A DNA stretch of 64,000 bases from Flaccisagitta enflata. Lineage: Eukaryota. Shown one piece after another: positions 9,801-12,800 of the stretch. Position numbers and translations under genes: made by a program. The number at the start of each line of letters is the position of its first letter. Within the stretch, counting starts at the first letter, position 1. The stretch covers positions 13,020,001 through 13,084,000 of the forward strand of contig OZ231126.1 of NCBI GenBank assembly GCA_965153355.1, given 5' to 3'. A model generated the notes under the pieces. It saw only the letters and a program-made list of their open reading frames with translations. It was not told where the DNA came from and searched no databases.

Positions 9801-12800
9801 CCACCCAGTTTTCTCCGATGTATGTCACACAGCCCAGAATTCTCCGATGTATGTCACACCACCCAGTTTTCTCCAATGTATGTCACACAGCCCAGAATTC
9901 TCCGATGTATGTCACACCACCCAGTTTTCTCCGATGTATGTAACACAGACCAGAATTCTGCGATGTATGTCACACCAAACAGTTTTCTCCAATGTATGTC
10001 ACACAGCCCAGAATTCTCTGATGTATGTCACACCACCCAGTTTTCTCAGATGTATGTCACACAGCCCAGAATTCTCCTATGTATGTCACACCACCTAGTT
10101 TTCTCCGATGTATGTCACACAGCCCAGAATTCTCCAATGTATGTCACACCACCCATTTTTCTCCGATGTATGTCACACAGCCCAGAATTCTCCGATGTAT
10201 GTCACACCACCCAGTTTTCTCCGATGTATGTCACACAGCCCAGAATTCTCCGATATATGTCACACCACCCAGTTTTCTCCGATGTATGTCACACAGCCCA
10301 GAATTCTCCGATATGTGTCACACCACTCAGTTTTCTCCGATGTACGTCACACAGCCCAGAATTCTCCAATGTATGTCACACCACCAAGTTTTCTCCAATG
10401 TATGTCACACAACCCAGAATTCTTCGATGTATGTCACACAGCCCAGAATTCTCCAATGTATGTCACACCACCCAGTTTTTGGGCAGCGGCTCCGAAGGGG
10501 ACGAAGTCCTGTAGAACACAGGGAGACTTTCGTTCGTCCGTTAGTTCGTTCATCCGTTCGTCCGTTCGTCTCCCCATCAGGCTCCTCAGGCCTCAAATCT
10601 GGCCTCTCAGACCCCCAATCTGGCCTCTCAGGCCTAAAATCCGGCCTCTCAGGCCTCAAATCAAGCCTCTCAGGCCTCAAATCCAACCTCTCAGGCCTTA
10701 AACCTGGCCTCTCAGGCCTAAAATTTGGCTTCTAAGGCCTCAAATCCAACCTCTCAGGCCTCAAGCCTGGCCTCTCAGGCCTCAAACCTGGCTTCTCAGG
10801 CCTCAAACTAGGCCTCTCAGGCCTCAAATCAGCTATCTAAGCCTCAATTCATTGCTCTCAGGCTTCAAATCAGTCCTCTTACCTTTCAAGCCCTAATCCT
10901 TAAGTCCTTAAGCCTCAAGTCAGCCCCCCCAAGCTTCCGATTTGCATTCTAAGGCCTTACATCAGCCGTCTTAGACCTAAGTTAAGGCTCTTGAAGGCCT
11001 CCAGTCAGCCCTCTTTCGCATCTCATCCACTTCTTCAGGCAGGACGAACAAAAGTCCCCCTGTGTTCTACAGGACTTTGTCCCCTTCGGGGCCGCTGCCC
11101 TGCTTCCCCTTACTCCAATTCACAATCACTCAAAGCAGGGCAACGGGTATCGCTGACCATATATTGCCCTTGGGCGACCTGTTTCCCATAGATGTCACAC
11201 AGCCCAGAATTCTCCAATGTATGACAGGTGGAACAACATCCCTCACTATACCAAGACTGAAAAATATGGAAGAGGGCCTTGTGAGCCCTCACTGACTAGT
11301 TACTACGCGCATCACTCCTAGTTTTCCACTTAGCAAAACTAACTTGCAAACATCCATTCTGAGTCTAACCCAAAACACTAATGCTTACCAAAATAGATAA
11401 GGGCTAATGATTGTTACCTTTATTACCAAATTTCAACAAATCACCCGAGGGTACCATTGTTAAGAAACCATACCCTTGAAGGATAGAATCGAGGTCAAGC
11501 TTATTGCGACCGCCGGACATTCTTATCCAAGGTACTGAGTAGTATGACAGGTGGAACAACATCCCTCACTATACCAAGACTGAAAAATATGGAAGAGGGC
11601 CATGTGAGCCCTCACTGACTAGTTACTACGCGCATCACTCCTAGTTTTCCACTTAGCAAAACTAACTTGCAAACATCCATTCTGAGTCTAACCCAAAACA
11701 CTAATGCTTACCAAAATAGATAAGGGCTAATGATTGTTACCTTTATTACCAAATTTCAACAAATCACCCGAGGGTACCGGGTCTTCATAAAAAACGTAGC
11801 TCAGCAACTAGAGCAGCTAGAAACGCGCGGTTTGTTTCTGTGCGAAGATCATGGTTCATAGAGTCTAAATTAAAGAGTTCATATTTTTGGGTGTTTGTTT
11901 ACATAGGGAAACAAACAAACAAAGATGAAAACAGATCATCTGTGAAAATTGTCATGTAAACAGCTGGAATCAATTTTAATACACATGTTTTATAGTTTAA
12001 AGGAAAGCTCTGACTCCACTCTTTAATCTGCAATGAAGAACGTGTTTTATTTTGCTGTTGTAACCCCTAAAACAACCAAAATAAACATTGGGATAACTGT
12101 TCTTTTGCCTGTATTTTTGTCCCCACAGATGGCCATTAGTTGTACTTTATCTCTGTCTCTTTTTGCATTTGAGGAAAAACAAAAGGTATTTGAAACCTAG
12201 TGCTCCACAGCAAAAGAATGTCCTTATTTGGGCAAAGGATGCAAAAGCAGCAGCAGTACAACTTTAGAAGAAATTCCTCTGTTGGTGATTGCCTCTCTTG
12301 TTTGTTGTCTGAACCAAGTCTTAAAACAAAAGAACAGAATTAAAAATCATGAAAGATTTAACATGATGCTTGGAAGGTGACTCAAGTTTCATGAGCAAAT
12401 CTCTCAAGAGAGGGCTTGCTACTGAGATTCAGACAAGGCCGGACACACAACCAATAAATAATCACTTTGGGGTGGACAAACAAAAATGGGGCTGGGCAAG
12501 GGCAGTAATACAGATAGCAGTGTCTTTTTATTGGGTTAGTCTCATGCATGGAGCTACTAAGTTACAGAGTGCTAAAAAAAAGTTTTTTCCATCAACCATA
12601 ATCATTATTTTTTTCACTCTGATTTTTTCTTTTAAATCTAAAAACCATATTCAGCAAAATGTTCATCATGAATCGTTTAAGAAAAGAATTAAGTTACTGT
12701 TTCTGTGAATTTATATTTAATTATTCATAGTTAGCATAAAAAAATAACCTAAATGAAGGCTCTTCATTATTGTCATTTAACATCCAGGATCAGTAAAAAC

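Follow-up and report, generated by a model that had tools for sequence, protein, structure and literature searches.

Naiad and Chlamys Penelope-like elements (PLEs) carry no canonical hammerhead ribozymes, yet as described by Craig et al. (2021, PMC8557442) they show pseudo-long terminal repeats (pseudo-LTRs), partial tandems, and 5′ truncation. The same description gives very high copy numbers for these elements, with Naiad copies numbering in the tens of thousands in certain invertebrates, and includes putatively non-autonomous Chlamys elements, e.g., MRC1 of Chlamydomonas, which make multicopy head-to-tail insertions (PMC8557442). Metazoan non-LTR retrozymes (Cervera and de la Pena 2020, PMC7229834) are built of head-to-tail units 150-450 bp long, which have a low GC content (<50%) and contain a type I hammerhead. 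A recent preprint relates animal retrozymes to PLE pseudo-LTRs (Li et al. 2026 preprint, 10.64898/2026.07.22.740005). Here, we describe two short non-coding repeats, A and B, in a 64,000-nucleotide stretch of the Flaccisagitta enflata genome (assembly GCA_965153355.1, contig OZ231126.1, positions 13,020,001 to 13,084,000). This whole stretch is hereafter called the window, and all positions are counted from its first letter. On balance, A and B most likely represent two subfamilies of one non-autonomous retroposon, non-coding and present in great abundance, that travels as a passenger of a PLE, probably one devoid of hammerheads.

Compared with non-autonomous derivatives of hammerhead-less PLEs, as far as the cited description covers these, A and B share the pseudo-LTR architecture, the head-to-tail multicopy arrangement, the fixed 3′ end combined with 5′ truncation, and a high copy number, the last being a property of Naiads in invertebrates. 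They differ from these elements in having neither a tail nor an inverted copy, and in a covarying fold at the unit junction that does not feature in the description given in PMC8557442. Moreover, the non-autonomous Chlamys examples described there are from green algae, whereas A and B are from an animal. With metazoan retrozymes, again as portrayed in the cited sources, A and B have in common non-coding head-to-tail units of similar length (323 and 371 bp vs. 150-450 bp), a low GC content, the absence of an LTR, and, presumably, reliance on PLEs. However, the type I hammerhead that defines these retrozymes is absent from A and B, and comparison to Rfam revealed no other known ribozyme in its place. 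A limited literature search yielded no printed example, from animals, of such a non-autonomous element that lacks the hammerhead.

Copies of both units were located by BLASTN of the units against the window (Table 1). A first-pass annotation, made from the letters of this DNA alone, had described A as a 324-bp unit present as two units plus ~35 bp. The tandem layout stands, while the unit length has to be revised to 323 bp and the array to two units plus 36 bp. For B, the same annotation had proposed one 371-bp unit plus ~72 bp, which BLASTN bore out with a repeat that is 100% identical. An alternative phasing of B in these alignments places the 371-bp unit at 62976-63346 and the 72 bp at 63347-63418. 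The two pieces of A are one insertion, which was cut later by an insertion of 19,583 bp. Copy number is 2.11 units for A and 1.19 units for B, i.e., both insertions (2/2) exceed one unit. A has a GC content of 41.5% and B one of 37.7%. Neither unit is coding: across the two, each repeated four times in tandem, the longest stretch without a stop codon spans 89 aa. There are no further copies of the block shared by A and B in the window: a covariance model run with filters off returned five matches with E <1e-8, all in the A and B copies, and the next match had an E of 0.52.

Table 1 Coordinates of the A and B units, their hairpins, and the insertion that splits A (window positions; strand is that of the RNA sense where given).
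Feature	Position	Strand	Remarks
A, full unit, 323 bp	11220-11542	-	3′-most unit in RNA sense; fixed 3′ end ...TCATA at 11220; BLASTN
A, second unit, unit positions 1-236 on + strand	11543-11778	-	99.6% over 236 nt, 1 mismatch; cut by the 19.6-kb insertion
A, second unit, remainder, unit positions 231-323	31362-31454	-	100% identical; first 6 bp GGTACC duplicate 11773-11778
A, third unit, 5′-truncated, 36 nt	31455-31490	-	100% identical; variable 5′ end, adjoins 29-bp satellite
B, partial unit, 5′-truncated, 72 nt	62976-63047	+	Variable 5′ end; 100% identical to 63347-63418
B, full unit, 371 bp	63048-63418	+	Ends ...TCATA at 63418
A, hairpin 1, 7 pairs, 5-nt loop	11272-11290	-	About 50-70 nt before 3′ end; second copy 11595-11613
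B, hairpin 1	63336-63354	+	Stem GAAAGC/GCUUUC vs. GAGGGC/GCCCUC in A
A, long imperfect hairpin, 23 pairs	11470-11535	-	Starts 8 nt past unit junction; second copy 31382-31447; RNAalifold
B, long hairpin	63055-63119	+	Homologous to the long hairpin of A
Later insertion, 19,583 bp	11779-31361	.	Separates the A array; not part of the A element

Both insertions have clear boundaries. The target of A is a 29-bp satellite organized in 58-bp higher-order repeats (9443-10475 and 31486-31888), which A breaks exactly in phase: the left flank ends in ...CCAATGTATG, the right flank restarts with TATGTCACAC..., and both junctions carry TATG or GTATG. The corresponding empty site is found in public read sets, in which satellite contigs of all four runs compared (X1, X3, X15, and X16; see below) pass 11223 straight into sequence from the far side of A. 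B, by comparison, lies in unique DNA with CATAGGC at both junctions. A plain satellite or a local duplication is ruled out as an explanation of the two arrays, with A interrupting the satellite in phase and B standing in unique DNA 31 kb away. When read on the minus strand for A and the plus strand for B, both insertions finish at ...TCATA, while their starts differ, with 36 nt of the preceding unit included in A and 72 nt in B. The shared ...UCAUA end and variable opposite end that had been proposed from the sequence are thus seen at both loci (n = 2). Mapping of copy ends, which had been suggested alongside, extends this observation: in run X1, 92 contigs leave A just before 11220 and enter diverse AT-rich flanks. 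These breaks are the fixed end recurring at many other loci. At the opposite end of A, no comparably supported break is seen among the best-supported rows listed (1,323 further rows follow).

Sequence at the fixed end itself points to how insertion may be primed. CATA, the last four letters of both insertions, also occurs in both targets, and we infer from these two cases (n = 2) that the overlap represents microhomology at the priming site. The four letters immediately after CATA are the least conserved of the block shared by A and B (CTAC in A, AGTA in B). The ...TCATA ends of A and B carry neither a poly(A) nor a simple-repeat tail, and BLASTN of the units against the window revealed no inverted matches beside either insertion. 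Target sites were also considered with regard to the microsatellite bias of PLE-type insertions, which in Naiads concerns (TA)n: the two loci comprise one satellite and one unique site, and the flank consensus at 11220 is AT-rich with an agreement of only 0.35.

Public read sets show that the fixed end belongs to a large family. The A stretch is present in 20 public runs from 13 studies, among them six RNA runs, two DNA runs of one organism, and numerous metagenomes of marine or seawater origin. We compared contigs from two DNA runs (X1 and X3) and two RNA runs (X15 and X16) with positions 11100-11900 at 80% likeness. Contigs matching these 801 bases number 28,759 in X1 and 7,036 in X3, counts that include the satellite and a neighboring repeat that ends at 11183. 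Summed depth reaches hundreds of thousands to millions inside A, whereas in the flank (11802-11900) it amounts to a few thousand, and because the depth within A is so far above this flank, the A family must be very abundant. Depth differences along the unit stem from contigs and were not used to rank parts of the unit. Contig breaks at 11328 and 11406 correspond to a subfamily with a different center, which matches how A and B differ from one another. The RNA runs include 143 family contigs in X15 and 61 in X16; contigs cannot reveal the start, end, strand, or circularity of a transcript, and DNA carry-over is possible, so these counts carry no claim of expression. The sole RNA contig record listed as crossing the unit junction reaches fewer than 31 letters past it on one side, and no conclusion was drawn from it. 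Likewise, contig joints, e.g., from 11183 to 11220, were set aside, since each is seen in just one contig at 80% likeness and the sides are mostly short. A 17-base gapped pattern searched against metagenome contigs matched at least 119 loci, but none of the matches listed was similar to A or B by BLASTN, indicating chance matches, and stricter patterns gave 0 matches in each of the viral_contigs and genome_contigs sets.

The similarity between A and B extends across the unit junction. The minus strand of A and the plus strand of B align over 108 nt at 75% identity in BLASTN, and MAFFT extends this to a 175-column block with 79% column identity, composed of approximately the last 75 nt of one unit and the first 100 nt of the next. 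The reverse-complement homology of ~180 nt noticed at first reading thus holds at about 175 nt. Two hairpins were identified within this block (Table 1), and their pairing is maintained despite substitutions. In the long hairpin, 46 of 46 cells are paired and four pairs changed on both sides, while control alignments in which the 3′ partners were slid by 1-3 columns left 28-52% of cells paired and zero double changes. In hairpin 1, 21 of 21 cells are paired and two pairs changed on both sides. Together, the two hairpins keep 30/30 pairs in both families, with six changed on both sides, in line with the first-pass annotation, which had reported that differences between A and B preserve pairing. 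A shuffle control (26/500) has a floor of about 1 in 16 when only two sequences are available, and we therefore simulated the pairing pattern directly: when the 12 observed substitutions were randomly placed over the 60 paired positions, 0 of 1,000,000 simulations retained all 30 pairs, with the caveat that the structure was derived from the same two sequences.

The direction of the wobbles further indicates which strand is the RNA. The RNAalifold consensus energy of the long hairpin is -17.1 kcal/mol in the sense orientation (minus strand of A, plus strand of B) and -7.2 in the antisense one, and the sense strand carries several G-U pairs at which the opposite strand would have A-C mismatches. 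This agrees with the strand originally assigned from the wobbles by eye. Outside of the stems, the internal-loop letters CCGGC and CCUCG are identical in A and B, and in the A family no variant of these letters reaches ≥10% among the variable sites listed. Five of the seven listed variable sites within the A hairpins are in loops or bulges (11279, 11478, 11479, 11504, and 11524). The remaining two, 11285 G>A and 11523 T>C (~38% each), lie in stems, and both give a G-U pair on the minus strand; these figures refer to the best-listed sites, with 28 further rows in the variant table. Since the strand chosen by the wobbles is also the strand whose 3′ end is fixed, two independent lines of evidence converge on an RNA intermediate that would be copied from its 3′ end.

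Two shorter motifs are found in or near this block. TCAGTACC is conserved at 11529-11536 (minus strand) and 63052-63059, starting 5 nt past the ...CATA end, and presumably resembles the arthropod initiator TCAGT. RAGGG motifs occur in the 3′-terminal region, as GUGAGGGAU in A (11229-11247, minus strand) and GUAAGGGCA in B (63385-63400). These mimic the 3′ strand of the long hairpin (AAGGGUA), and in a multimer they could pair with the UACCUU of the next unit to form an alternative conformation.

A PLE-type cycle would accommodate these observations as follows. The RNA would correspond to the minus strand of A and the plus strand of B, and target-primed reverse transcription would begin at its fixed 3′ end, ...UCAUA, which would share 4-5 nt with the nicked target. 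Synthesis of cDNA would then cross at least one unit boundary, either because the template is a tandem transcript of a master copy or because the enzyme jumps to a second RNA, and would halt at a variable 5′ position, leaving a partial head-to-tail tandem with pseudo-LTR architecture. Reverse transcriptase and endonuclease would be supplied in trans by a PLE, probably from a clade without hammerheads, while the ~175-nt junction block may act as a cis-acting module for enzyme recognition, for definition of the 3′ end, and possibly as a promoter. We infer a PLE enzyme because a partial tandem with a fixed 3′ end and a variable 5′ end is the signature of PLE insertion, and both features, i.e., the fixed 3′ end with variable 5′ truncation and the partial head-to-tail tandem, are seen at 2/2 loci.

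Several observations weigh against a PLE passenger. A Pfam scan covered those 120 of the 157 open reading frames (ORFs) of at least 70 aa in the window that lie outside simple repeats, and among these no transposon protein was found, be it a reverse transcriptase, a GIY-YIG endonuclease, or another type. The 30-40-bp tail and the adjoining inverted truncated copy that are frequent at PLE insertions are not seen at either locus, and the evidence for ends and microhomology comes from two loci plus the best-supported rows of one read-set table. Folding energies are ordinary for the long hairpin (z-scores of -1.65 in A and -0.12 in B) as well as for the whole units (-1.17 in A and -0.51 in B), and those of hairpin 1 (-1.8 in A and -2.4 in B) likewise weaken the structural case. 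Finally, a long interspersed nuclear element (LINE) partner capable of template jumping would leave similar insertions.

This last possibility corresponds to a short interspersed nuclear element (SINE)-like retroposon moved by a stringent-type LINE, in which the 3′ block would be the LINE tail, the 5′ hairpin would lie in the promoter region, and extra units would arise by end-to-end template jumping. Such an element would display the fixed 3′ end, 5′ truncation, and target microhomology seen here, along with a conserved 3′-terminal block bearing a hairpin and a very high copy number, and SINEs with a LINE-derived 3′ tail likewise combine small size, lack of coding capacity, and great abundance with a 3′ module that is conserved and a body that varies. 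We nevertheless regard it as unlikely. The presence of more than one unit in an insertion is an exception among SINEs, whereas it is the rule for PLE-type insertions and occurs in 2/2 insertions here, each of them a partial tandem. In addition, A and B lack a head derived from a small RNA, with no tRNA-, 5S-, or 7SL-like match in Rfam at E≤10 (the weak matches of B are unrelated to these), and they also lack the A-rich, poly(A), or simple-repeat tail of SINEs.

A second alternative, for which we see only a slim chance, is that A and B are true analogues of retrozymes. The covarying junction fold with its invariant loops would then be a self-cleaving RNA of a new class, perhaps self-ligating as well, that replaces the hammerhead, cuts multimers after ...UCAUA and so defines this end, and yields unit-length or circular templates for rolling-circle reverse transcription. 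The conserved block lies exactly over the unit junction, and the CCGGC and CCUCG loop letters are the same in A and B. The ...AUA at the fixed end would be a legal NUH-type cut site, insertions exceed one unit, and family contigs occur in two RNA runs (143 and 61). Searches for known ribozymes were negative, however: no Rfam 15 family reached its gathering score anywhere in the window, A including one unit junction had no match even at E≤10, B had only four unrelated weak matches (E 1.6-9.6), and the CUGANGA (CTGANGA) core is missing from both strands of both units. Both searches concur with the first-pass annotation, which had found no hammerhead core and no clear twister, HDV, pistol, or hatchet match by eye. 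Sequence-weighted models are known to miss HDV-like folds, and for these the Rfam negative is not strict. The A and B units are also less self-paired than known circular ribozyme RNAs, their RNAs being predicted to be neither rod-like nor highly self-paired, and the RNA contigs, as noted above, cannot show ends or circles and may include DNA carry-over. Nothing in the data supports self-cleavage, unit-length RNA, or circular RNA for A or B. The absence of a hammerhead does not in itself require a new ribozyme, since hammerhead-less Naiad and Chlamys PLEs and their derivatives make the same architecture and already account for it. Of the interpretation initially put forward, a mobile non-coding retroelement with one fixed and one variable end, a covarying fold, and no known ribozyme is retained, while a new self-processing RNA would be an unnecessary addition.

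Rolling-circle or one-ended transposition at the DNA level, as in Helitrons, with the fixed end at the nick site and the hairpins acting in single-stranded DNA, would also give one fixed and one variable end with more than one unit per insertion, and G-T wobbles are tolerated in single-stranded DNA hairpins too, but it is highly improbable here, as Helitrons are defined by 5′ TC and 3′ CTRR termini and insertion between A and T while the junctions, as read, have neither TC...CTRR termini nor a clear A^T target, no Rep/helicase ORF was found among the ORFs scanned in the window, and the wobble-bearing strand is fixed at its 3′ end, as reverse transcription from an RNA 3′ end predicts.

The 19,583-bp insertion that splits A is delimited by 17-nt terminal inverted repeats (16/17 matching) at 11779-11795 and 31345-31361, exactly on both breakpoints. 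GGTACC is duplicated around it; this sequence is palindromic, and the duplication is equally readable as TA or GTAC. ORFs of ≥70 aa within the insertion include no transposase or reverse transcriptase in Pfam, only weak low-complexity matches to Transformer, Atrophin-1, and DUF3915. Satellites abound throughout the insertion, which has the appearance of a large DNA transposon, either non-autonomous or composite.

The window as a whole is animal DNA with many microsatellites and a GC content of 33-50% across 2-kb bins. The Pfam scan identified exons of an otopetrin-family gene on the minus strand (3718-9061), in four ORF pieces of which three exceed the Pfam cut-off (E 1e-12 to 1e-19) and the fourth falls below it. 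Next to A, a second repeat (~10880-11183) has a summed contig depth above that of A in all four runs (X1, X3, X15, and X16). It has a sharp end at 11183/11184, from which hundreds of contigs continue into T-rich sequence, and a 36-bp piece of the satellite sits between this repeat and A. A 1,493-bp unit is present as two head-to-tail copies at 23999-26967 (97.7% identical), each with a 10-bp satellite inside, and a 135-bp unit is present in 1.9 copies at 13391-13652 (96% matches, Tandem Repeats Finder); these two pairs may be further partial-tandem insertions. Inverted-repeat arms of ~167 nt that are 78-83% complementary were found at 42676-42842, 43277-43443, 56090-56256, and 56691-56858, and this family looks like miniature inverted-repeat transposable elements.

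Non-autonomous PLE passengers of animals have so far been defined by their hammerhead, and A and B present the same tandem architecture with no hammerhead. If they are indeed passengers of a hammerhead-less PLE, they would extend to animals what the cited literature, as far as it is covered here, describes only in green algae, and searches based on the hammerhead would be overlooking a very abundant class of repeats. The junction fold is a candidate cis-element for the mobilizing enzyme and, with lower likelihood, a new ribozyme. Either way, these elements would make the poorly understood insertion cycle of PLEs easier to test.

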